Part shown: one piece after another, positions 127-36,769 of the stretch
Position numbering within the stretch: the first letter of the stretch is position 1
Layout of the letters: the number at the start of each line of letters is the position of its first letter
Assembly: GCA_038240335.1 (NCBI GenBank)
Contig: JBBSDV010000002.1
Span: 1-46,385, forward strand
DNA length: 46,385 nt
Reading direction: 5' to 3'
Source of the DNA: Dehalococcoidia bacterium
Lineage (GTDB): Bacteria; Chloroflexota; Dehalococcoidia; DSTF01; JACRBR01
Translations under genes and position numbers: made by a program
The notes under the pieces: generated by a model
What the model saw: the letters and a program-made list of their open reading frames with translations, nothing else
Told to the model about the DNA's origin: nothing
The model's database searches: none

Positions 127-2547
127 ATGATGATCGGCAGGCGCGGCACGGGTACAGGCGGCCGCATGCATAGACGACGGCTGCCCGCGCTCCTCGCCGC
201 CTTGCTCGTCGTCCTTGCGTGCATCGGTGCGCCCTTCGCGCCCCGCATCGCCTACGCGCATGCCTCGCTGATTCGTGCCAACCCTGCGAACAACGAGACG
301 TTGCGGCGGCCGCCGGCGCGCATCGTCCTCAACTTCAGCGAGGCGATCGAGCAGCGGCTCACGCAGATCCAGGTCGCCGACAACAACAAGAACCGCGTCG
401 ATGACGGACCGATCGCGTTCGACGACCGCGACCCGACGTTTGCCTCTATTGGCGTCAAGACGCTCGCCCCGGGCCTCTACTTCGTCAAGTGGAGCAACGT
501 ATCGACTGTCGATGGCCACCCCTACAACGGGCAGTACCCGTTCATCGTCCTCAATCCCGACGGCACCTTCCCCGCGGGCGTGTCGCTGCAATCGGCCGGC
601 ACCGCATCGACGGGCGGCGGCGGCCTCCTGCCGTACAAGATCGATATCGCCCTCAAGTGGATCGCCCTGCTCTCGCTCGCGATCGTCGCCGGCGCGGCGT
701 TCTTCCTGATCGCCGTTTTGCGCCCCGCCGCTCGCTTTCTCGAGGACGAAGAGTTTCTCCGCACAACCGACGCCTCCGAGCGTTGGGTCGTGAATCTCTC
801 ACACGTGCTCTTGCCCGCGTCGTTCATCGCCGGCGCGTTGCTCGTGCTCTTGACGGTCGATCGATTCGCCACGGACACGAGCTTGTGGGAGTACATCGCC
901 CACCTGCGGCCGGGCCAGTACCGAGCCGGACAACTCGTGTTGCTAGTGATCGCGTTGCTCGGCGCCGACCTTCTGTTCCTCGGCGGCAGCGATCGCAAGC
1001 GGAACGCCGGCATCGCGGTTCTGCTGTTCGCATCCGTTGCCGCTCTCTTCATGTACTCAATGACCAGCCACAGCGCCACGGGTCGCGGCGAATTTTGGGC
1101 CGTGTCTTCCGACTTCGTGCATCTCTTCGCATCGTCGACATGGCTCGGCGCGCTCGTCCTCCTCGTCCCGCTCCTCCGTTGGGCGCGACGCGAACTCGAT
1201 GACACGCAACGGTTCCTCTATCTCGCCAATGCATTCGATCGTTTCTCGATCATCGCCGGCATCAGCGTCATCGCCGTCCTCGCCAGCGGCACGTTCAACG
1301 CGCTCGTCGAGGTGCCGAATGCGAGCGCGATGATCGATACGACGTATGGCAAGGTGCTGCTCGCCAAGATCATCCTCATCCTCCCTCTGCTCGCGATCGC
1401 CGGCCTGAACGCGTTCTACCTCAAGCCGCGCCTCGTCGCCGTCATCGACGGCCTGTACCAGCAGGGCGGCACCGGCACCGAGCAACAGCGCTCGACATGG
1501 ATGCAGCAACTGTCCGCGCTTCAGCGCTGGCTGCCGAAGACGATATTGCTCGAGATCTTCCTCGTGCTCGCCGTGTTCGCCTCCGTCGCCGTGCTGAGTC
1601 AATCATCGACGGCAAAGGGAGAGATCGCGCAGGACAGGGCCTCCAGCGCAGCGCCCGCAAAGTTCGATCAAATTGCAGACGCTAACGGTGTGAAGCTGTC
1701 GCTCGAAGTCTCACCAGACCGCGTCGGTCTCAACCAGTACACGCTGTTGATCCAGAACGCCGACGGCACGCCGCTAGATACCGTCACACAGGCCCGACTG
1801 CGCTTCAGCTTCGACGACGTTCAGAACGCCGTCGCCCCGTCCGAGATCATCTTGAACAAGTTCGCGCCCGGCGACTTCCGCGGCGCCGGGTCGTACTTTA
1901 CGGAACCCGGTAACTGGCGCGCCGACGCCAACGTCCGTCGGTCGAGCGGAGACGACGTCACGCATGCGTTCGTCCTGCCGGTCGCCCGCGCCGCCGCGAC
2001 GCCCACGGCGGGCGGTTCGAGCATCTTTGAGCTGCCGTTCACCGCCTTGAATTGGAATGAGGTTGCCGGCGCGATCCTCGCTCTCCTCGGCGCCGCAATT
2101 CTGATCTACCGTCGGCAGTTGCACATTCTTCGCCCGCCGGCCTACCGCGTCGGCGTCACGATAGCCACGGCGCTACTGCTCGCGGGCGCAGTTCTCGCAT
2201 TCGGCGTCCATTCCGACTCGAAGCCCGTCGATGCCCGCGTCGGCAACCCCGTGCCCTCAAGCCCCGCCTCGATCGATCGCGGCAAGATGCTGTTCCAGCA
2301 GAACTGCGTCACCTGCCACGGCATCGATGGCCGCGGCGACGGGCCCGCATCCGTCAATCTCAGTCCCGCGCCATCGGACTTCCGGCTCCATATCCCCTTG
2401 CATACAGACCCCCAGTTCTACGCCTTCATCGCCGCCGGCTATCCCGGATCGGCAATGCCCTCGTTCAAGGATTCGTTCTCCGACACCGATATCTGGAACC
2501 TCGTCAACTTCCTCCGCTCCGCCTTCACCGAGGCGCCCACGCAGTAA
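127..2547 (+). CDS. CopC-CopD-YtkA/FixH-like-cytochrome c fusion protein (copper handling)
   Basis: Signal peptide ending AYA-HASL; CopC motifs H1 and DGH; multi-TM CopD region (SHSA, DFVHL, TTYGKVLLAK); C-terminal heme motif CVTCH with distal AMP. Confidence 0.85.
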   Translation: MMIGRRGTGTGGRMHRRRLPALLAALLVVLACIGAPFAPRIAYAHASLIRANPANNETLRRPPARIVLNFSEAIEQRLTQIQVADNNKNRVDDGPIAFDDRDPTFASIGVKTLAPGLYFVKWSNVSTVDGHPYNGQYPFIVLNPDGTFPAGVSLQSAGTASTGGGGLLPYKIDIALKWIALLSLAIVAGAAFFLIAVLRPAARFLEDEEFLRTTDASERWVVNLSHVLLPASFIAGALLVLLTVDRFATDTSLWEYIAHLRPGQYRAGQLVLLVIALLGADLLFLGGSDRKRNAGIAVLLFASVAALFMYSMTSHSATGRGEFWAVSSDFVHLFASSTWLGALVLLVPLLRWARRELDDTQRFLYLANAFDRFSIIAGISVIAVLASGTFNALVEVPNASAMIDTTYGKVLLAKIILILPLLAIAGLNAFYLKPRLVAVIDGLYQQGGTGTEQQRSTWMQQLSALQRWLPKTILLEIFLVLAVFASVAVLSQSSTAKGEIAQDRASSAAPAKFDQIADANGVKLSLEVSPDRVGLNQYTLLIQNADGTPLDTVTQARLRFSFDDVQNAVAPSEIILNKFAPGDFRGAGSYFTEPGNWRADANVRRSSGDDVTHAFVLPVARAAATPTAGGSSIFELPFTALNWNEVAGAILALLGAAILIYRRQLHILRPPAYRVGVTIATALLLAGAVLAFGVHSDSKPVDARVGNPVPSSPASIDRGKMLFQQNCVTCHGIDGRGDGPASVNLSPAPSDFRLHIPLHTDPQFYAFIAAGYPGSAMPSFKDSFSDTDIWNLVNFLRSAFTEAPTQ

Positions 2548-2668
2548 CAACCGCGCGCCCCGCTCCGTAACGTCGCGCCGTCCGTCGCCATTTACATCTG
2601 ACGGCGACCAGCCTAGACTTGTGTACTCCGCGCGCACGTGCGCCGGGGACAGCATCGAGGCTCCGATC

Positions 2669-4123
2669 ATGGCCAAGGACACCGAAGTTCAGCGCCGCCT
2701 CGCGATCTCGCGCGTCCCGATTAACAAGCAGGATCCCGCCGTCCGCACGAAGAACTGGGACGAGGTCTTCCTCGGCTTCGATATCGAGGCGGCGAAGATC
2801 GAGGCATCACGCTGCATCCAGTGCCCGACCGCCCCCTGCCAGCAGGCCTGCCCCGTCGGCAACGACATCCCCGGCGCATTCAAGCTGCTCGAGATCGGCG
2901 ACGCGGACGGCGCGGCGAACAAGTTTCGCGAGACCAGCAACCTGCCCGAGCTGTGCGGCCGCCTTTGCCCCCAGGAGCGCCTCTGCGAGGGCGAATGCGT
3001 CGTCGCTTTCGCAATCCGCCCCGACATGCATCAGGAGCCACCGGTATCGATCGGCAAGCTCGAGGCCTTCGTTACCGACTACCAGCGCAAGACCGTCGGC
3101 ATCCCGCTGCCCGTCCTGCCCGCGCCGACCGGCTTTCGCGTCGCCGTCGTCGGCGCCGGCCCCGCCGGCATGGCCGTCGCCGAAGAACTCGCAAAACTCG
3201 GTCACTCGTGCGTCATGTACGACGCCTGGCCAGAGCCCGGTGGCATCCTGCTCTACGGCATTCCCAACTTCAAGCTCAGCAAGGAAGTGCTGCAGGACAA
3301 GCTGCGCTACCTCGACCGCCTCGGCATCGGCTTCGTCGGTAACACATGGATCGGGAAAGACGTCACGATCGACGATCTCTTCGCGCAGGGCTTCCATTCG
3401 GTGTTCGTCGGCACCGGCGCCGGTCTGGGCGGCTCGCTCGCGATTCCTGGGGAGGAGTACACCGGCATCTTCGCCGCGACGGAGTTCCTCGTCCGCGGCA
3501 ACCTGCGCCCGGAGCAGCTGCCCGAGCACATGCGCGAGACCCTCGATCCCGGCGCCAATGTCGTCGTTATCGGCGGCGGCGATACCTCCATGGACTGCGT
3601 GCGCACCGCCGTGCGCCTCGGCTCCCAGCACGTCACCTGCATCTACCGCCGCACCGAGACAGAGATGCTCGGCCGTCAGGAGGAGCGTCAGCACGCCCGC
3701 GACGAGGGAGTCGACTTTCAGTTCCTGACGATCCCCCTGCGCTTCATCGGCAACGCCGAAGGCCACGTCACCGGCGTCGAGTGCCAGCGCATGGCGCTCG
3801 GCGAGCCGGACGAGTCCGGACGGCGCCGCCCCGTACCCGTACCCCACTCCGAGTTCATCATCGACGCCGACACGGTCGCCGTCGCCATCGGCTACAACGC
3901 CGACCCCATCATCAAGGATGCCGCGCCCGGCGTCTCGACGAACAGGTGGAATCTCGTCGAGGTGCATCCCGATACATTCATGACGAGCCGCGCCGGCGTC
4001 TTCGCCGGCGGCGACAACGTCAACGGCGCAGACCTCGTCGTCACCGCCCTCGCCGACGGCCGCCGCGCCGCCCTCGCCATCCACGACTACCTGGACTCCC
4101 TCTCCCCGCCCGATCTCCCCTAG
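2669..4123 (+). CDS. gltD: NAD(P)H-dependent Fe-S flavoprotein, glutamate synthase small subunit/SudA/NfnB family
   Basis: EASRCIQC..PC...CP, CGRLCPQERLCEGEC, GAGPAG, GGGDTSMDC and GVFAGGD motifs; ATG 2669 preceded by GAGG. Confidence 0.8.
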   Translation: MAKDTEVQRRLAISRVPINKQDPAVRTKNWDEVFLGFDIEAAKIEASRCIQCPTAPCQQACPVGNDIPGAFKLLEIGDADGAANKFRETSNLPELCGRLCPQERLCEGECVVAFAIRPDMHQEPPVSIGKLEAFVTDYQRKTVGIPLPVLPAPTGFRVAVVGAGPAGMAVAEELAKLGHSCVMYDAWPEPGGILLYGIPNFKLSKEVLQDKLRYLDRLGIGFVGNTWIGKDVTIDDLFAQGFHSVFVGTGAGLGGSLAIPGEEYTGIFAATEFLVRGNLRPEQLPEHMRETLDPGANVVVIGGGDTSMDCVRTAVRLGSQHVTCIYRRTETEMLGRQEERQHARDEGVDFQFLTIPLRFIGNAEGHVTGVECQRMALGEPDESGRRRPVPVPHSEFIIDADTVAVAIGYNADPIIKDAAPGVSTNRWNLVEVHPDTFMTSRAGVFAGGDNVNGADLVVTALADGRRAALAIHDYLDSLSPPDLP

Positions 4124-4275
4124 CCGCCACGTCTCCGGTCGCCGGGCAATGTGACGTGCCAACCCCAACCTGCCCCCTAATCACCGGATCTCCGGTCGCC
4201 GGGCAGTGACGCGCGAACCCCAATCTGCCCCTAACCGCCAGGTCTCCGATCGCCGGGCAATGTGACGCGCCAACC
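4117..4275. repeat. Three degenerate tandem repeats of about 55 bp
   Basis: Core TCTCCG(G/A)TCGCCGGGCA at 4132, 4189 and 4243; the flanking GTGACG.GC.AACC and CCCCTA also recur. Confidence 0.85.
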
Positions 4276-4282
4276 TGAGGGC

Positions 4283-4434
4283 GGGAGCGCAGAGGGCGCA
4301 GCGCCTCTGCCGGGGGCCTGGGGGTGTCCCCCAGCAACCTCTTTCTTCTTCTCAAAAATTGTGTATCCGCGTACGCGCGAGCGGACACGGCGAATGAGGC
4401 GAGAAGCCGCGGCGACTGCCGGCCGCCGTGAACA
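4283..4434. repeat. Dispersed MITE/REP-like element, copy A
   Basis: Collinear blocks shared with 31612-31783; internal hairpins GCAGAGG..CCTCTGC and GGGGG-TGT-CCCCC. Confidence 0.6.
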
Positions 4435-4467
4435 GGGGTTCCGGGGTGTCCCCCGGATGGAGAGAAT

Positions 4468-4503
4468 GAAATAGCCCGGCCCCTCGAAGGGCCGGGCTAT
4501 TTC
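4468..4503. terminator. Intrinsic terminator-like hairpin, probably bidirectional
   Basis: Perfect 15-bp stem GAAATAGCCCGGCCC-N6-GGGCCGGGCTATTTC. Confidence 0.75.
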
Positions 4504-4552
4504 GACTGTGTTGCCAGGCCTGCTGCCCGGCTTCCGCTCTCGGGAGCGCCTG

Positions 4553-4621
4553 CTAGCAGGATACCCCCGAGGTGTTGCGGTCGTCGTTCGGCAAACAGGC
4601 CTTACAACTATCACTATGCAT
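4553..4621 (-). CDS. Putative 22-aa peptide MHSDSCKACLPNDDRNTSGVSC
   Basis: ATG lies 6 nt after the extended SD GAAAGGAGGTGAT; translation is unproven. Confidence 0.35.
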   Translation of the reverse strand: MHSDSCKACLPNDDRNTSGVSC

Positions 4622-4649
4622 ATCCGCATCACCTCCTTTCCTAGAGATC

Positions 4650-4677
4650 AGCATATCAAGCCCCCAAAAAAGATCAA
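4650..4677 (-). promoter_or_regulatory. Sigma70-type promoter
   Basis: TTGATC-N16-TATGCT with a TGn extended -10. Confidence 0.55.
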
Positions 4678-5020
4678 GCCGCAGAGGACATACTCCCAAT
4701 CGCCACAAACGCCGCCACCCCAACGCGAGCCTCCGCACGGCGTCACCGCGCGTCCTCGATGTTTGTTTGTCAACCACCGTCACAGGAGCTACGCCCGCCC
4801 CCGGGACGAAAGCCCACTCCAGTCAGGCAGCCGTTGACCGAGATAGTGCTTCGAGGAACCAGACGCGTTGACGACTAGCACGATCGCCGCCACGAGGCGC
4901 GTGCCCGGTACCGGTATAGGGCACGATTCGCGGCCAAGGGGGTCAGGCGGGACCAACTTTTTTTTGCTGCATATTGCAAATCGTATTGTTAAAGAGCAAG
5001 AGCCGTTCACACAACCGTAA

Positions 5021-5428
5021 CTACCGCGAGCATCCAGAACCGCCGTTGTCTAACAGCACGACTGGTGGGCCATGAAGACACTCGTTTGTCTCAGCGATGA
5101 TGCCAGAAACCGGCAGAGCTGAGAACCCGGCGAGCAGGAACGCGACTAGTAGGGATATGAGCGGGTTAACGTCGGTCGCACGCGCAGATCCAATACACCC
5201 GCCCACGAGCAAAAGACCGCTAGCCGCAAGGCCAAGCCAGAACAGCACGCTCTCTGCCAGAACGACGCCGTCTGACGGGTGCCGCCCAATCGCCCCAACG
5301 AGCGCATAGAACCCCATGAGCATGATCGCGAGGGCGAATAGCGCGCCCGCGAACGCCACGCATCCTACGATGAACGACAGCAGCAGTTCGCTCACCTTCA
5401 CGCTTCTAAACTCATTCGACTCACTCAC
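5021..5428 (-). CDS. Small 3-TM membrane protein, paralog 3
   Basis: Three hydrophobic segments, NPLIS..LAG, terminal C-x15-CSR; start overlaps the upstream stop. Confidence 0.7.
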   Translation of the reverse strand: MSESNEFRSVKVSELLLSFIVGCVAFAGALFALAIMLMGFYALVGAIGRHPSDGVVLAESVLFWLGLAASGLLLVGGCIGSARATDVNPLISLLVAFLLAGFSALPVSGIIAETNECLHGPPVVLLDNGGSGCSR

Positions 5429-5795
5429 CGTGTGAGCACCTATGTTCCCCTGTGTCGGGGAACGATGCTCGGACCGTGCAGTCGCCGTAAATCGAGACGC
5501 AACTGAAGAGCCACAACGCTGCGAGTCCCGTCAGTACCACCGCGACGGCAAGCGCGATCCACGGATTTGCGCGCAGCCGCTTGGACAACCGTACGGGGCC
5601 AGTGACGAGCACCACCAGCGATACGAGCACAACCGCGACGAAGAGGCCGACCGCGAGGGAACCTCGCACTACCTCGTAGTTGTCCGTGTCGAGCCCCCGG
5701 AAGGAGGCGTAGAACGCGACCAGCAACACCCATGCGAGCACCCCCTCGGCCACAAACGTCGTCACACCGAGCGCGACACTGCGCACTGCGGTCAT
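5421..5795 (-). CDS. Small 3-TM membrane protein, paralog 2
   Basis: NPWIA..LTG, terminal C-x13-CSH; ATG 5795 follows GGTGGAAG. Confidence 0.7.
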   Translation of the reverse strand: MTAVRSVALGVTTFVAEGVLAWVLLVAFYASFRGLDTDNYEVVRGSLAVGLFVAVVLVSLVVLVTGPVRLSKRLRANPWIALAVAVVLTGLAALWLFSCVSIYGDCTVRASFPDTGEHRCSHGE

Positions 5796-5841
5796 TATTC
5801 TTCCACCCGAAGCTCGATTCGTCGTAGTGCATGCGTTCGCG

Positions 5842-6207
5842 CTATCGAGTGCAAGCATCGACGGCGTACGGGATGCTCACGTGAAAATCGCAGCTGTTGA
5901 AGATTGACGTTACGAGAAGGAGAAAGTGCAAACCGGCACCCGCAAGAAGCATGGCGCATGCGAATGCGATCCAAACGTTCATCCTCCAGCGTCGGGCACA
6001 GAACATCGGCACCCCGAATAGTACCGTCGCCCCGCTCACTAATGTGATCGTCAACACGAGACAGGCCGAGACCGTTCGCGCCGCCGTGCCGGATGGTTCC
6101 AGCGCAGAGAGCCCCAGTCGGGATCCAAGCAGCGCCGCGTAGCTCGTTATCGCGGCGAGCGCGAACGTGCCGACCCCAATCGCGATACTCGCGACGTTGC
6201 GTCCCAT
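5842..6207 (-). CDS. Small 3-TM membrane protein, paralog 1
   Basis: NVWIA..LAG, terminal C-x12-CTR; ATG directly follows the upstream TAA. Confidence 0.7.
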   Translation of the reverse strand: MGRNVASIAIGVGTFALAAITSYAALLGSRLGLSALEPSGTAARTVSACLVLTITLVSGATVLFGVPMFCARRWRMNVWIAFACAMLLAGAGLHFLLLVTSIFNSCDFHVSIPYAVDACTR

Positions 6208-6909
6208 TTAACAGGATGTTTTCTTGCCCTGCTTCACCTTCGACCCGTCGCTGAAACGATCACTCGACGTCAACTGCGATGCCAGAGCGTTTGCGCCCTC
6301 GATTACTTCCGCCGCTCGCGCGGCCTGGGCGGTTCCGGCGCTATTGCCGCCGCTGCCCCCAATCAAGACCTTGAACAGCGGAGCCTCGATCTGAATGCTG
6401 CCTTCGTATAGTTCACTCGCGGCCGTGCCACGGATGGCGAAGTGTCGCTTCTTGGCATCCTCGATGATCGGAGTCGAGCACGCCGGCTCGACTGAGACTT
6501 GCACAGGTATCAGACAGGAGCCATGCTCGTTGTCCCCCGGCCGACAGGTTCCGTAGTAGATGTAGAAATGGTCTGTCGCCGGAATACCGTAACTACTCGC
6601 GGCCGTCGTGACGTGTTCACATCCAGTGAGTGGAAGCCCCTCGAAGTCTTCTCCCAGCCATACGAGGGGGTAGTCGTCGAACGACTTCATCAGTTGCTTG
6701 CATTTCACGGGGTCGGTCGCCTGAGATGGCGACGTCGACCCCGCGCCCGTGCCCGGCGTGGGATCTGTAACCGGATCAGCCGTGACCGACGCCGGTGAGA
6801 GGCGAGGATAGACAGCGGATCGGAACGCGAAGCCGAATGCGAGCGCGAACATGCCCACACCCAGAAAGACGATACCGCTTCGAAGGCGATGGGATTTGAA
6901 TCGATGCAC
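6208..6909 (-). CDS. Membrane-anchored or exported Cys-containing hypothetical protein
   Basis: GGAGG then GTG 6909; N-terminal TM, Pro/Thr linker, YPLVWLGEDFEGLPLT domain with 6 Cys. Confidence 0.7.
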   Translation of the reverse strand: MHRFKSHRLRSGIVFLGVGMFALAFGFAFRSAVYPRLSPASVTADPVTDPTPGTGAGSTSPSQATDPVKCKQLMKSFDDYPLVWLGEDFEGLPLTGCEHVTTAASSYGIPATDHFYIYYGTCRPGDNEHGSCLIPVQVSVEPACSTPIIEDAKKRHFAIRGTAASELYEGSIQIEAPLFKVLIGGSGGNSAGTAQAARAAEVIEGANALASQLTSSDRFSDGSKVKQGKKTSC

Positions 6910-6926
6910 GCGACCTCCGTCAGAAC

Positions 6927-7739
6927 CTACTGGATGTGGTTCACCCAGCCGTTGCTGCCCGACATTTCTTCGCTGCACTGGTGCATGCGCCGTATGTTTC
7001 CCCAATTCTCGACGCCGAGGAAGGAATGTCCCCCCACAGTGACGAGCTGATAGTAGAACCAGTCGCGGCCAGCGTCGAAACCACTGAGGTCCGGTCGCAG
7101 TCCCGGCCAACGGTTGCCGAACACCGCCGGGACGGCGTGCCAACACGGCCCCGTCCCCTGTTCTTGGTCATAGTGCGGCGTACAAGTTGCCCACGTTCCG
7201 CCGCGAGGATCGGCGATCGAGGCGACGATGTTGCAGCGGACGTGCCAACGCGATTCAGCGCAAGGAACGACCACATAACAAAACTGCGTTCCATCGTTCG
7301 TCGCGGAGCTTATCTCTCCTGCCACACAGGTCGCTCCGTCCTTAAAGTTTTGGTCGCCCTGCCCGTTCACCGTGATCCCGTTGTCGTTGAAAATCTGCTC
7401 GGCCTGCGCGCCGTTGCGCCGAATGATCATCGTGACCGGATCAATTTCGCCGGCATCATCAACGCAACCCGAGCCATAAGAGAACTGACTTCCGTTGGTT
7501 TGCCAGAATGCCGGCGGTGGAGGAATGGGCGTCGCCGTGGCCGTCGGCACCGCTGTCGCAGCACCACCTCCACCACCACCCCCGCCACCTCCGCCACCAC
7601 CGCAGGCGAAGTCGCTCCCGTCGCCCGTGCGAAGGTTGATGCAGGAGGCGGTGCCCGGCTGCTCCTTGCACTGATAGTCCGCGGCGACGGCAAAAAAAGC
7701 CAGCACCGCCAACCCGGCGACTAGTCCGACCCTTCGCAT
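6927..7739 (-). CDS. Secreted Cys-rich protein with a Gly13/Pro-Thr linker and a possible LssY C-terminal-like domain
   Basis: Signal peptide, 11 Cys, motif order DPV...RWHVR...HYD...H...FDAGRD. Confidence 0.65.
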   Translation of the reverse strand: MRRVGLVAGLAVLAFFAVAADYQCKEQPGTASCINLRTGDGSDFACGGGGGGGGGGGGGAATAVPTATATPIPPPPAFWQTNGSQFSYGSGCVDDAGEIDPVTMIIRRNGAQAEQIFNDNGITVNGQGDQNFKDGATCVAGEISSATNDGTQFCYVVVPCAESRWHVRCNIVASIADPRGGTWATCTPHYDQEQGTGPCWHAVPAVFGNRWPGLRPDLSGFDAGRDWFYYQLVTVGGHSFLGVENWGNIRRMHQCSEEMSGSNGWVNHIQ

Positions 7740-7984
7740 AACACACCCCCGCTTCGCTCCGCCGTCGTTGCTGGGGAGCCGATCCTAGCTTTTTGTTTTT
7801 TGTCCTGTCAAGCCCCCAATTTCGCCGCCCGGGGCGACGAACGCACGCCGCCAGCATGCTCCCCTGCAAGGTCACCAGCGCTGCAGCCTCCACTACCATC
7901 CAGCGTCCGAGCATCCCGCATCCATCGCCCCGCTGCGTCGCCCGACGCTCGGACATCAACCTCCACCCGTGCCATGCTCGCCGC

Positions 7985-8560
7985 ATGAACACACACCGCG
8001 CCCTCGCCGTCTCCGGCCCAAAGACACCCGAAGGAAAGACCCGCAGCAGTCGAAACAGCACCGGCCACGGGCTCCGCGCCAACGTCCTGGTCATGCCCCA
8101 ATTCGAAACCGAAGCCGACTGGGTGGCCTGTTCCGACGGCATCGTCGACAGCCTCGCACCCGATGGCGGCACGGAAGTCGCCCTCGCCGCGCGCGTCGCC
8201 GAACTCCTCTGGCGCCTCCGCCGCATCGCCCGCGCCGAAGTCCAAATGGTCGAGTCCGCTTTCGAGGCCACGCACACCAAGGACGCTCGCCAACGACAAA
8301 CGCGCGTCGACGCCGCCGAACAGCTCGCCGGCAGCTTCTATGGCGGTGGCTTCGAGCAGGAATCCGGAACGTCACCTGCTCCAACCGAACGACGGCTTCT
8401 CCCCGCCGATGGCGATCTCGATCAGCTGATCCGCTATGAAGCACACCTCAATCGCCAGCTCTACCACGCCCTCCACGAACTCGAGGCACTGCAGGCTCGC
8501 CGCAACGGATCGAGCCCCCCGCTCGCTCGTATCCAGGTGCACGGTCTCCCCGGATCATGA
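7985..8560 (+). CDS. Hypothetical protein of the GPKTPEGK...N..HGL type (related to HGGxSTG-domain proteins)
   Basis: SGPKTPEGKTRSSRNSTGHGL, WRLRRI and LIRYEAHLNRQLY motifs. Confidence 0.7.
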   Translation: MNTHRALAVSGPKTPEGKTRSSRNSTGHGLRANVLVMPQFETEADWVACSDGIVDSLAPDGGTEVALAARVAELLWRLRRIARAEVQMVESAFEATHTKDARQRQTRVDAAEQLAGSFYGGGFEQESGTSPAPTERRLLPADGDLDQLIRYEAHLNRQLYHALHELEALQARRNGSSPPLARIQVHGLPGS

Positions 8561-8699
8561 AAAGTGCCAAACGATTACATAACGAGAGCCAGGCAAGTAC
8601 CCAGCGCAGATCGCCGCAGCCATAAGAGAGACCCCAACGCGTGTGGCACTGGCGTCCTCGCCTCCGAAACATGAAAAGTGCTAAACGATTACATAACGA
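8556..8699 (+). repeat. Two direct copies of a 30-bp motif (8556-8585 and 8670-8699)
   Basis: CATGAAAAGTGC(C/T)AAACGATTACATAACGA, one mismatch between copies. Confidence 0.9.
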
Positions 8700-8727
8700 C
8701 AACGGGCTGCGACGGGGAGAATTGCGC

Positions 8728-26148: not shown

Positions 26149-26223
26149 TCCTCGGTAGCTCAACGGTAGAGCAATCGGCTGTTAACCGATAGGTTGTTGG
26201 TTCGAATCCAGCCCGGGGAGCCA
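26149..26223 (+). tRNA. tRNA-Asn(GTT)
   Basis: Acceptor TCCTCGG/CCGGGGA, anticodon arm ATCGG-CTGTTAA-CCGAT, GTTCGAATC, encoded CCA. Confidence 0.97.
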
Positions 26224-36674: not shown

Positions 36675-36769
36675 CTCTTATCGAGAGTGGTGGAGGGATC
36701 GGCCCGACGAAGCCCGGCAACCCGCATGCGGGTGCCAAATCCGACTCGCAACAGCGAGAAAGATGAGAG
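36675..36769 (+). ncRNA. SAM-I (S-box) riboswitch
   Basis: CTCTTATCGAGAG.GGTGGAGGGA..GGCCC.ACGAAGCCCGGCAACC...GGTGCCAAATCC...AAAGATGAGAG matches the consensus. Confidence 0.95.

Follow-up and report, generated by a model that had tools for sequence, protein, structure and literature searches.

What is encoded by a minus-strand transcript of about 175 nt that opens with a perfect complement of the 16S rRNA 3' tail and carries a reading frame of only 22 codons? The question is raised by a locus in a stretch of 46,385 nucleotides from a contig of Dehalococcoidia, phylum Chloroflexota (the whole stretch analysed, called here the window). A sequence-only reading of the locus had suggested either a ribosome-binding or sequestering small RNA or a highly expressed micro-peptide. 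The features on which the argument depends are as follows, all of them on the minus strand.

4672..4677, minus strand: -35-like hexamer TTGATC, with TTGAC kept at the same place in relatives
4650..4658, minus strand: extended -10, TG-A-TATGCT (TATGCT at 4655-4650), with TAnnnT kept in relatives
4468..4642, minus strand: predicted transcript of 175 nt that runs from 5' A4642 through the terminator, placed by promoter spacing, the onset of conservation and RNA contigs
4628..4640, minus strand: 13-nt perfect 16S 3'-tail complement GAAAGGAGGTGAT, a maximal Shine-Dalgarno (SD) at RNA nt 3-15
4553..4621, minus strand: 22-codon ORF MHSDSCKACLPNDDRNTSGVSC, ATG at 4621-4619 and TAG at 4555-4553
4624..4635, minus strand: 5' strand of predicted helix P0, GAGGTG-A-TGCGG (3' half of the SD plus spacer), from RNAalifold, RNAduplex and between-clade covariation
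4569..4580, minus strand: 3' strand of predicted helix P0, CCGCA-A-CACCTC, an ORF-internal anti-SD/anti-spacer that shares nucleotides with the 5' strands of P2 and P3
4595..4608, minus strand: 5' strand of helix P1, codons 5-9, in the minimum-free-energy fold
4510..4523, minus strand: 3' strand of helix P1, GCAGGCCTGGCAAC, almost invariant in the window's clade
4537..4572, minus strand: helix P3, CCTCGGGGG with CTCCCGAGAG, around the apical hairpin CCTGCTAGCAGG, which contains the stop codon
4468..4502, minus strand: terminator hairpin of 16 bp in the predicted fold

The promoter TTGATC-N16-TATGCT described earlier is present, and relatives keep its counterpart, TTGAC-N17-TAnnnT, in the same position. 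It scored below the cut-off of a consensus scan (8 of 12 matches, threshold 9), and the terminator was not flagged by the consensus scan because its U-run lies partly within the stem. The predicted 5' nucleotide, A4642, is the A of AGGAAAGG and lies 8 nt downstream of the -10; conservation among relatives starts at this nucleotide (BLAST; query position 58-59). Metatranscriptome contigs of 155-201 nt, about the length of the terminated unit, were found for several sequence variants of the element, all from four runs of one study and from relatives rather than the window's genome, in RNA libraries of a kind that can contain DNA. Ten of about 17 such pieces end within 3 nt of A4642, often precisely on that nucleotide, and six reach 14-34 nt upstream of the predicted start. 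Nothing can be concluded from the stretches of the 501-nt query that lack RNA-contig cover, since the relatives do not conserve the flanks. In the window's family the adjoining gene is convergent, and it is GltD-like in at least 23 of 29 loci; the terminator, palindromic and with both an A-run and a U-run, could possibly serve in both directions. The stand-alone transcript proposed earlier, some 175 nt long, is therefore supported by its own promoter-like site and terminator, by the convergent neighbour and by the relatives' RNA contigs at the 5' A.

The element occurs as a single copy in the window's genome and is conserved across many genera. BLAST retrieved it from 30 of 35 genomes of the family and from 41 of 61 relatives, and its exact 5' motif occurs, once per genome, in 35 of 48 order genomes with a completeness of 90% or more. 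When species genomes were scanned, at least 120 stretches came back, of which 109 were retained, placing the element in at least 109 Dehalococcoidia species. Eleven of the listed stretches (L057, L058, L064, L065, L083, L111, L118, L122, L139, L148 and L150) were dropped for their long ORFs or AT-rich contexts (Firmicutes, Kiritimatiellae), two of them being Actinomycetota loci. Across a phylum-wide sample the 5' motif was present in only 3 of 401 genomes. Genus g21, in the same order, had the motif in none of eight genomes, and a relaxed pattern applied to five motif-less genomes of the order gave only chance matches within coding sequence; in those five the element is either absent or unrecognisable. 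Among cultured strains it is carried by Tepidiforma flava YIM 72310 (locus L081). No Rfam 15 family reached its gathering score on the element: in gathering mode only a SAM riboswitch and tRNA were reported, both elsewhere in the window, and in E-value mode the best matches on the element were CC2171 at 18.6 bits (threshold 75) and Ms_IGR-5 at 12.3 bits (threshold 45). No earlier description of the element was found in the literature.

The 16S complement was examined against tails from the same family. No 16S gene was found in the window's own MAG, and the tail was taken from five copies in four same-family genomes, all ending ...GGATCACCTCCTTTCT; they agree with the complement at 4640-4628 over 13 perfect pairs, with a possible G.U to the last U. 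The exceptional strength attributed to this SD was borne out, since tail complementarity upstream of any candidate start among 1600 long ORFs of the genome reaches 9 nt at most. The 14-mer with up to one mismatch occurs once in the genome at the element, plus one unrelated match. In 30 relatives retrieved by whole-element BLAST the 13 nt are unchanged, while the remaining RNA averages 65% column identity; outside this set the invariance of the 5' motif is circular, as most sequences were gathered by a pattern requiring it. An invariant AUG follows 8 nt after the GGAGG of the SD, and then a conserved frame. Ordinary SDs are present on many genes of these organisms, and this moderate genome-wide use argues against a general sequestration of the anti-SD by the ribosome. 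An SD of maximal length, kept invariant at the very start of the RNA, fits a ribosome-binding small RNA, as far as complementarity can indicate.

The reading frame that follows is maintained in an unusual manner. The ATG at 4621-4619 is as described before, and the ORF is 19-25 codons long in 107 of 111 distinct homologues, in which the remaining two frames are unconstrained. Within the ORF, indels come in multiples of three, and bigger insertions fall 3' of the stop; the 2-nt insertion of the window sits in the spacer. The synonymous fraction pooled over eight clades is 0.33 in frame versus 0.30 and 0.31 out of frame. The three codon positions carry 33, 34 and 31 extra states, with no third-position bias. 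These comparisons show the ORF to be kept open and in frame across clades with no apparent amino-acid-level selection. The highly expressed micro-peptide suggested earlier was weakened, the frame being conserved but not the amino-acid sequence. CxxC and a terminal Cys are both present in the window, but CxxC is confined to the window's clade and the terminal Cys is not conserved. The stops are TAG in 94, TAA in 15 and TGA in 2 of the 111, against genome backgrounds of 45%, 16% and 38%. Sensing of RF1 through the TAG stop was considered and dropped, TAG being the commonest stop in the genome. The avoidance of TGA remains as an observation, in lineages that are not independent.

These data bear directly on one alternative, in which the locus is a tightly regulated micro-peptide gene whose RNA structures tune translation and stabilise the mRNA, with a hydrophilic product of about 22 residues. 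We regard this as rather unlikely, with a real share of the probability nonetheless. The perfect SD, the optimally spaced AUG and the conservation of frame, length and stop would all be expected of such a gene. A faint pattern, M-D/H-x-x-S/R-C/S ... R-x-S-L-E-V, is common to the clades, Pro-11 is written in all four synonymous codons within the window's clade, and the Tepidiforma-like clade (n=8) is an exception to the pooled result, with a synonymous excess of 0.58 versus 0.25 and 0.18. However, the pooled clades lack such an excess, residues 2-4 and 10-14 vary freely inside one family, and the codons that are conserved are those in helices, at all three positions. The 'LEV' of the pattern falls in the same place as a second SD-like RNA tract, which lies 7-11 nt upstream of the stop in 98 of 108 sequences and is nearly invariant in an alignment of 80. 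Searches of Pfam and NCBIfam with the peptide gave no match. The 108 peptides are hydrophilic (GRAVY median -0.61, maximum 0.14), with hydrophobic or small-residue runs of at most 5 and a composition led by Ser (13.9%) and Arg (11.5%); no codon runs shared across clades were found among them.

Every hairpin arm named in the sequence-only reading (AGGCCTG/CAGGCCT, CCGC/GCGG, CTCGGGGG/CTCCCGAG and CCTGC/GCAGG) is paired in the minimum-free-energy fold, whose energy is -95.9 kcal/mol compared with -65.1 +/- 4.4 for shuffled sequences (z = -6.99; none of 200 shuffles as good). The terminator hairpin is likewise present, at 16 predicted pairs and not the 15 given earlier. When the long hairpin and terminator are aligned, 87.3% of cells are paired versus 32-49% with the partners slid, and 19 pairs have changed on both sides, a count reached by none of 500 shuffles. 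Pairs with changes on both sides number two in P1 (94.5% paired), five in P3 and nine in the terminator, the stems of which are very variable. Relative to the start codon, P1 starts at +13 to +15.

A further helix, absent from the features listed in the sequence-only reading, is formed by an ORF-internal anti-SD/anti-AUG segment covarying with the spacer. RNAalifold gives P0 11 pairs in the window's clade, and its RNAduplex energy is -20.7 kcal/mol in the window (median -19.1 kcal/mol); the z-score against shuffles is modest, with a median of -2.3 and values near zero in some clades. The complement of a sequence's own spacer variant is found within its ORF in 80 of 108 cases, and complements of other variants in 24 of 540 tests. 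Between clades the spacer and its partner covary through six compensating states; this cross-clade evidence is a 5-mer table, the MAFFT alignment having left the P0 partner outside the common columns, and inside the window's clade P0 is invariant and gives no covariation. The spacer/AUG region is thus shown, by comparative sequence evidence, to have a covarying partner inside the ORF with which it would pair.

The predicted energetics of P0 indicate that it would not simply coexist with the long hairpin. A nested P0 fold costs 17-24 kcal/mol relative to the open long hairpin, and in these models P0 would be rescued only by a pseudoknot or by transient co-transcriptional folding; it would exclude part of the long hairpin or make a pseudoknot with it. 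Closed and open folds differ by a median of -2.3 kcal/mol when no pseudoknot penalty is charged, the topology being a pseudoknot in 83 of 87, and charging 9.6 kcal/mol for the pseudoknot leaves the closed state favoured in only 9 of 87. Pairing of the anti-SD with downstream sequence was no better than in shuffles (median z -0.2), and the second SD-like tract serves as its alternative partner in only 43 of 80 predicted folds. A free 5' toehold (nt 1-5 always unpaired) found no support, as RNAduplex has nt 1 or 2 paired in 74 of 109.

The explanation towards which we lean, tentatively and with its function inferred, is a translated, self-gating riboregulator or ribosome sensor rather than a peptide gene. 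An independent, strongly promoted gene would produce a structured RNA of about 175 nt in which P0 hides the translation start site and competes or pseudoknots with the long hairpin, the anti-SD having as its alternative purine-rich partner the second SD-like tract or P3'. The exceptionally long SD would let the tail of a free 30S subunit out-compete P0; translation of the short frame would then remodel the RNA, and the ribosome would leave cleanly at the stop. The output would be ribosome engagement or the RNA conformation, making the element a sensor or modulator of free ribosomes and the peptide a by-product. In either form the RNA gene probably acts through ribosome engagement rather than through its peptide.

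Ribosome engagement might also be the whole purpose. An unlikely alternative is a ribosome parking or hibernation RNA comparable to 6S RNA, which would be abundant, would capture idle 30S or 70S particles by the 13-bp SD-ASD helix and, once translation resumes, would free them as they translate the short, disposable frame to its stop; the stable hairpin from codon 5, at the mRNA entry site, would be a roadblock, and the internal anti-SD and second SD-like tract would keep handling to one ribosome at a time. In an initiating ribosome the entry channel for mRNA lies about +13 to +15 from the AUG, which is where P1 starts. A maximal SD held invariant at the head of the RNA, an ORF conserved merely as a frame with a stop, the housekeeping-type promoter with its extended -10 and the several variants assembled from metatranscriptomes would all be in accordance with such a role. 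On the other hand, P0 would hinder capture rather than help it, many genes in these organisms have ordinary SDs, and the patchy distribution (none of eight g21 genomes) is unexpected for a core hibernation device. If the parking reading were true, the element would be an RNA-based device and a mimic of a ribosome substrate, as 6S RNA is for RNA polymerase.

The genes beside the element suggest a different possibility, to which we assign a low probability: a leader-peptide attenuator of a downstream biotin protein ligase gene, or a derivative of one that is orphan or trans-acting in the window's family. Among the matches listed, a BirA-like gene (Pfam domains BPL_LplA_LipB and BPL_C) is next on the same strand in 56 of 109 retained loci. 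Its start lies a median of 24 nt past the terminator U-run, with an SD-like core in only 6 of 57, and a short ORF with alternative helices and a terminator is the anatomy of an attenuator. The window's family nevertheless has the convergent GltD-like neighbour and no same-strand gene directly downstream, and its birA is found on other contigs, where no element precedes it. Inspection of the alignment revealed no segment covarying with the strongly covarying, very variable terminator stems, and the ORF has no regulatory codon run. In 14 of 57 a TAnnnT -10-like sequence precedes the BirA start by 9-16 nt (crude start calling), which suggests that this gene has its own promoter and a leaderless mRNA, and the RNA contigs roughly match the terminated unit in length.

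It is highly improbable that the element is bound by CsrA, as a sponge or as a mini-mRNA under CsrA repression, with sites at the GGAs in the 5' tail and in the internal SD-like tract: two csrA copies in the window's genome (one to four in 48 of 48 order genomes) and up to four GGA in the 5' 22 nt, with one more in the internal tract, speak for it, but csrA does not track the element, being encoded also in 13 motif-less order genomes including those of g21, the two to five GGA motifs fall for the most part in a 5' tail that the predicted folds leave single-stranded, rather than in hairpin loops, and a need for GGA alone leaves 13 invariant 16S-matching nucleotides unexplained and does not account for the conserved AUG, frame and stop. 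A link to bS21 was also rejected: bS21 is present in 47 of 48 order genomes with no correlation to the element, and rpsU has an ordinary SD.

If the self-gating riboregulator is the correct explanation, the element would represent a new, widely conserved small-RNA family in poorly studied, mostly uncultured bacteria of soil, sediment and groundwater. The longest possible SD at the very 5' end, a frame kept for translation rather than for its product and a covarying start-hiding helix are seldom combined in one transcript, and together they raise the testable question of whether the ribosome itself could be the ligand or target of a bacterial small RNA. With a cultured Tepidiforma carrier, experiments would be feasible.

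Several known systems share parts of this design. 6S RNA is an abundant stand-alone mimic of an RNA polymerase substrate, from which the polymerase escapes by making a short product; the likeness is one of logic only, with the ribosome as the machine here, no similarity in sequence or structure and no Rfam 6S match. STAB-SD is a 5'-proximal SD-like stabiliser of mRNA, not itself starting translation, in an organism with the 5'-exonuclease RNase J. The SD of the element is similarly placed, at RNA nt 3-15, and RNase J is found in the genome (584.6 bits, cut-off 400), but unlike in STAB-SD an invariant AUG and a conserved frame follow. Trans-acting leader-peptide attenuators and dual-function small RNAs have a short translated frame in a terminated, structured RNA with alternative helices. 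The element likewise has a short frame and alternative helices, and differs in having no codon runs, no antiterminator detected and, in the window's family, no downstream operon. In rpsO-type ribosomal-protein mRNAs an SD/AUG pseudoknot alternates with hairpins and the bound ribosome is held ('entrapment'); there the element controls a genuine protein gene, whose product binds to it. A similar SD/AUG pseudoknot is predicted here, but the frame is a mini-ORF.

Two further parallels are found in cited work. The type I toxin mRNA aapA3 of Helicobacter pylori is described as having an ORF-internal anti-SD in metastable hairpins that sequester the SD (PMC6733600). The element resembles it as a small stand-alone unit in which a predicted ORF-internal SD pairing is in competition with a final fold of greater stability, and departs from type I toxin mRNAs in its hydrophilic peptides, which are not of the membrane-active type, and in being single-copy, syntenic and not mobile. 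In Flavobacterium johnsoniae and other Bacteroidia, rpsU is reported to have an extended SD long enough to pair with the 16S tail over 13 bp, and a specialised initiation, in a setting where the ribosome normally hides the anti-SD, the genome is otherwise devoid of SDs and bS21 autoregulates (PMC13000457). Both systems have the potential for a 13-bp SD-ASD helix on a single transcript in the genome; in contrast to Bacteroidia, other genes here use SDs, the ORF encodes about 22 non-conserved residues, rpsU lies on another contig with an ordinary short GGAG SD, and the regulated product is not bS21. If the reading favoured here is correct, the element would be a second independent example, after Bacteroidia rpsU, in which a 13-bp SD-ASD helix marks a specialised circuit and not merely strong expression.

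The element at 4468..4642 on the minus strand is a real, ordinary-looking gene for an unusual RNA and represents a new family. The promoter TTGATC-N16-TATGCT, the 13-mer, the 22-codon ORF and the long hairpin named in the sequence-only reading were all present on the minus strand; the terminator hairpin was also present, but with a stem of 16 bp and not 15 bp.

4677-4672, minus strand: -35-like TTGATC, 16-nt spacer to the -10
4658-4650, minus strand: extended -10, TG-A-TATGCT
4642, minus strand: A, 8 nt past the -10, then 22 nt reading AGGAAAGGAGGTGATGCGGATA
4640-4628, minus strand: 13-mer GAAAGGAGGTGAT, part of the 22-nt 5' stretch
4621-4619 (ATG) to 4555-4553 (TAG), minus strand: 22-codon ORF, peptide MHSDSCKACLPNDDRNTSGVSC
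From codon 5, minus strand: long hairpin (predicted fold), with the stop codon in its apical hairpin
4608-4595 with 4523-4510, minus strand: helix P1 of the long hairpin
CCGC with GCGG, minus strand: helix P2
4572-4564 with 4546-4537, minus strand: helix P3
4502-4468, minus strand: 16-bp hairpin 3' of the long hairpin
2231-4123, plus strand: GltD-like oxidoreductase gene (Pfam Fer4_20 and Pyr_redox_2), convergent with the element
26149-26220, plus strand: tRNA gene (69.5 bits)
36675-36769, plus strand: SAM riboswitch RF00162 (82.8 bits)

The fold energy of the element was -95.9 kcal/mol (z = -6.99), matched by 0 of 200 shuffles. Neither of its signals was flagged by a simple promoter and terminator scan (promoter 8/12 matches, U-run partly within the stem). 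A match to a described family, which would have refuted the observation, was not found for the element in Rfam; the SAM riboswitch and the tRNA were the only matches in the window at gathering score. The palindromic hairpin motif GGGGGACACCCC(C) occurs at 4321-4332 and 4443-4454, between the element terminator and the GltD-like gene, and at 47 sites in the 3.17-Mb assembly; this dispersed repeat looks REP-like or terminator-like.

No 16S gene is present in the window's MAG (3.17 Mb, 315 contigs, 91% complete). All five 16S copies from four genomes of the same family end in ...GCGGCTGGATCACCTCCTTTCT, which makes the 13-mer perfectly complementary to the family's 16S tail, as had been claimed from the canonical end; the preceding G could form an extra G.U pair with the last U. 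Among 1600 long, high-GC3 ORFs of the window's genome, the maximum complementarity upstream of any candidate start was 9 nt, so the impression of an unusually strong Shine-Dalgarno sequence (SD) was justified. Complementarity of at least 5 nt was found upstream of 27% of first candidate starts, versus 10% at control positions within ORFs. Ordinary SDs are thus used by the organism, and that of the element is an outlier. The 14-mer recurs in the genome (at most one mismatch) at one unrelated place only.

BLAST with a 261-nt region gave matches in 41 of 61 related genomes (30/35 in the window's family f1; 3/8, 2/8, 1/2 and 4/7 in families f2, f3, f4 and f5), and the alignments start at the A or G of AGGAAAGG. 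In a MAFFT alignment of 30 matches the promoter spacer was unconserved, and the 5' 19 nt were invariant except for two spacer positions and the first base in L009, the row from the unpublished genome G021. This genome also counts as one unit in the BLAST, order-wide motif, CsrA and bS21 tallies; no conclusion rests on it. Scanning one genome from each species with the pattern AGGAAAGGAGGTGATGYGNATG gave at least 120 stretches; 11 of the 120 listed were removed as unrelated, and at least 109 loci were kept. Nearly all records among the matches listed bore the name Dehalococcoidia or Chloroflexota; Tepidiforma flava YIM 72310 was among them. Of the 48 genomes in the window's GTDB order that are at least 90% complete, 35 carried exactly one exact motif copy (f1 18/19, f2 8/8, f5 6/8, f4 1/1, f3 2/11), the window's own genome being scored as a miss owing to 2 nt inserted in its spacer; in g21, a genus of the same order, the exact motif was found in 0/8 genomes. 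Across an even sample of the phylum it occurred in only 3 of 401 genomes, and the element therefore belongs to some orders of the class rather than to all of it.

Two Actinomycetota loci (L057 and L111, Solirubrobacterales and Actinomycetes MAG records) share the 22-nt 5' motif; 3' of it come a 19-codon ORF with a TGA stop, an internal CCACCTCC and a hairpin resembling a terminator. Their upstream sequence is conserved between both, with no obvious promoter. They may be an independent or transferred analogue and were left out of every count. Another locus, L093, in a record titled Acidobacteriota bacterium, has an element and a birA context of the same type as in a Dehalococcoidia clade; its contig may be mis-binned.

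The stand-alone transcript of about 175 nt that had been predicted found moderate support in contigs from four metatranscriptome runs of one study, which contain small parts of the query and were matched to it at 80% likeness. Contigs of 155-201 nt were obtained from several relatives; about 17 pieces reach the 5' region, 10 of them ending within 3 nt of A4642, and several whole contigs of 171-173 nt span A4642 to just beyond the terminator. Five pieces extend upstream by 14-17 nt and one by 34 nt. The evidence for a discrete RNA having the ends predicted is moderate, as the contigs come from relatives in one study and RNA libraries can hold DNA.

The frame of the element is selected to stay open and to be closed by a stop. 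From the second ATG it runs for 19-25 codons in 107 of 111 distinct homologues (stops TAG 94, TAA 15, TGA 2), whereas the +1 frame meets its first stop at scattered positions and the +2 frame within 9 codons. In the window's family, ORF indels are divisible by three (-3, -9 and three separate +3) and larger insertions are located 3' of the stop codon; the 2 nt inserted in the window are in the spacer. Of 1734 long high-GC3 ORFs in the genome, 45% end in TAG, 38% in TGA and 16% in TAA; TAG as the commonest stop is unusual at 65% G+C. That the gene encodes a regulated micro-peptide is rather unlikely: frame, length and stop are kept, as this reading would have it, but the peptides, which are hydrophilic, differ strongly between clades, and pooled synonymous excess was absent. 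In eight clades with ORFs of equal length, the synonymous fraction of single-base codon differences was 0.33 in frame versus 0.30 and 0.31 out of frame. Variation in the window's clade was even over codon positions (33/34/31), and a synonymous excess appeared only in a Tepidiforma-like clade (n = 8; 0.58 versus 0.25 and 0.18). Pfam and NCBIfam searches found no family matching the peptide. From these comparisons we conclude that selection maintains a translatable, closed frame and not an amino-acid sequence.

Two conserved, partly exclusive helix sets are formed by the RNA, one of which sequesters the spacer and the AUG. In RNAalifold with 22 window-clade sequences, GAGGUG-A-UGCGG, made up of the 3' half of the SD and the spacer, paired with the ORF-internal CCGCA-n-CACCUC. 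This helix, P0, has 11 pairs in that clade, all invariant. RNAduplex located the corresponding partner 22-40 nt 5' of the stop in almost every one of 108 sequences, with a median energy of -19.1 kcal/mol and a median shuffle z of -2.3 (values from -4 to -6 in two large clades and close to 0 in some others). Between clades the spacer varies at two positions (G-YGN-A), jointly with the partner: the exact complement of the own spacer variant lies within the ORF in 80/108 sequences, and complements of the other five variants in 24/540 tests.

Spacer variants, their ORF-internal partners and sequences with the own complement
CGG, partner UCCGC: 45/55
UGG, partner UCCAC: 10/13
UGA, partner UUCAC: 16/23; 6 more with UUCGC (U.G wobble)
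CGA, partner UUCGC: 3/4
CGC, partner UGCGC: 5/9
UGC, partner UGCAC: 1/4; the other three carry GGCAC

This covariation is the decisive point for P0 as a putative helix hiding the start site. The AUG lies within P0 in most relatives; that of the window falls just outside owing to the 2-nt insertion. In the clade with spacer TGA (e.g., L039:2501-2522) the motif reads GATGTGAATG, and a first ATG with an immediate TGA forms a start-stop pair overlapping the real start codon.

The window's clade supports the long hairpin and terminator: 87.3% of cells were paired versus 32-49% with partners slid, and 19 pairs, mostly in P3 and the terminator, were changed on both sides, a count reached by 0/500 shuffles; both measures used a structure taken from the fold of the window's copy, a choice that works in its favour. 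P0 is incompatible with P2 and proximal P3, since its 3' strand shares nucleotides with their 5' strands. As a nested alternative P0 would cost 17-24 kcal/mol in the window's clade. It crosses P1, giving a pseudoknot topology in 83/87 sequences; with P1 kept, the closed state is within a few kcal/mol of the open one (median difference -2.3 without pseudoknot penalty) and is lower in 54/87, or in 9/87 with a penalty of 9.6 kcal/mol. A purine-rich SD-like tract 7-11 nt before the stop (98/108 sequences) is the most conserved stretch after the 5' end in an 80-sequence alignment. In predicted open folds it paired with the same anti-SD nucleotides in 43/80, and the anti-SD paired elsewhere in 36/80; this alternative pairing did not differ significantly from shuffles. 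Competition of two SDs for one anti-SD is a lead at most.

The long SD would enable competition of the 16S tail with P0, the RNA would be remodelled as the short frame is translated, and the function would lie in the encounter of ribosome and RNA rather than in the peptide. Taken whole, this reading, the best of those weighed, falls a little short of probable. The ribosome itself may be the target of the RNA; an RNA that parks ribosomes on the 6S model is improbable.

Of the 29 loci from the window's family, at least 23 have the GltD-like gene beside the element; the other flank is variable. In other clades, 56 of 109 loci among the matches listed have a biotin protein ligase gene 3' on the same strand (BPL_LplA_LipB 66.4 bits, BPL_C 41.1 bits). 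By crude start calling, it starts a median of 24 nt past the U-run, has an SD in 6/57 cases and a -10-like hexamer placed for a leaderless start in 14/57. The window's own genome has birA on other contigs, where no element precedes it. An attenuator of birA, or an orphan of one, is still less probable than ribosome parking. The element behaves autonomously, with neighbours that vary by clade. It is a conserved, single-copy small-RNA gene with a maximal SD at its 5' end. A role as a CsrA-bound RNA is the least credible reading.

Several further observations were made. An 806-residue ORF at 127-2547 (plus strand), a CopC-CopD-C-terminal cytochrome c fusion, overlaps with its end the longest reading of 2231-4123, in which the first Pfam match starts only at residue 172; the GltD-like gene therefore probably starts downstream of 2231. 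The region ~4200-8700, directly upstream of the element promoter, has about 59-63% G+C versus 65% overall and 67-69% in the flanks, with no ORF of the genome's usual high GC3 and a minus-strand ORF chain without Pfam match; it may have been acquired as an island. The window's genome has two csrA genes 11 kb from each other (C34:240-386, plus strand; C34:11578-11724, minus strand), and CsrA gave 1-4 matches per genome in 48/48 genomes of the order, which is notable for Chloroflexota. In g21 (genomes such as G041 and G048), which lacks the element, two bS21 paralogues occur in 7/8 genomes; bS21 in the window's family is mostly single, at about 52-55 bits versus about 70 in g21.

A full-text literature search found no such element described in Chloroflexota. 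STAB-SD stabilisers, rpsO-type pseudoknots, attenuator-derived small RNAs and 6S RNA were also compared with it; RNase J, which bears on a 5'-stabiliser role, is encoded in the window's genome. The family is best filed among translated or leader-like regulatory RNAs. In Flavobacterium johnsoniae, the extended SD of rpsU is reported to form a 13-bp SD-ASD helix and to sense ribosomes without bS21 (PMC13000457); the element has one feature in common but fails the defining one, its product not being bS21. Similarly, SD-sequestering metastable hairpins are reported within the ORF of the aapA3 toxin mRNA (PMC6733600); again one feature is shared and the defining one fails, since the product is not a hydrophobic toxin. 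The extended SD of rpsU and the aapA3 hairpins are the closest mechanisms in print.
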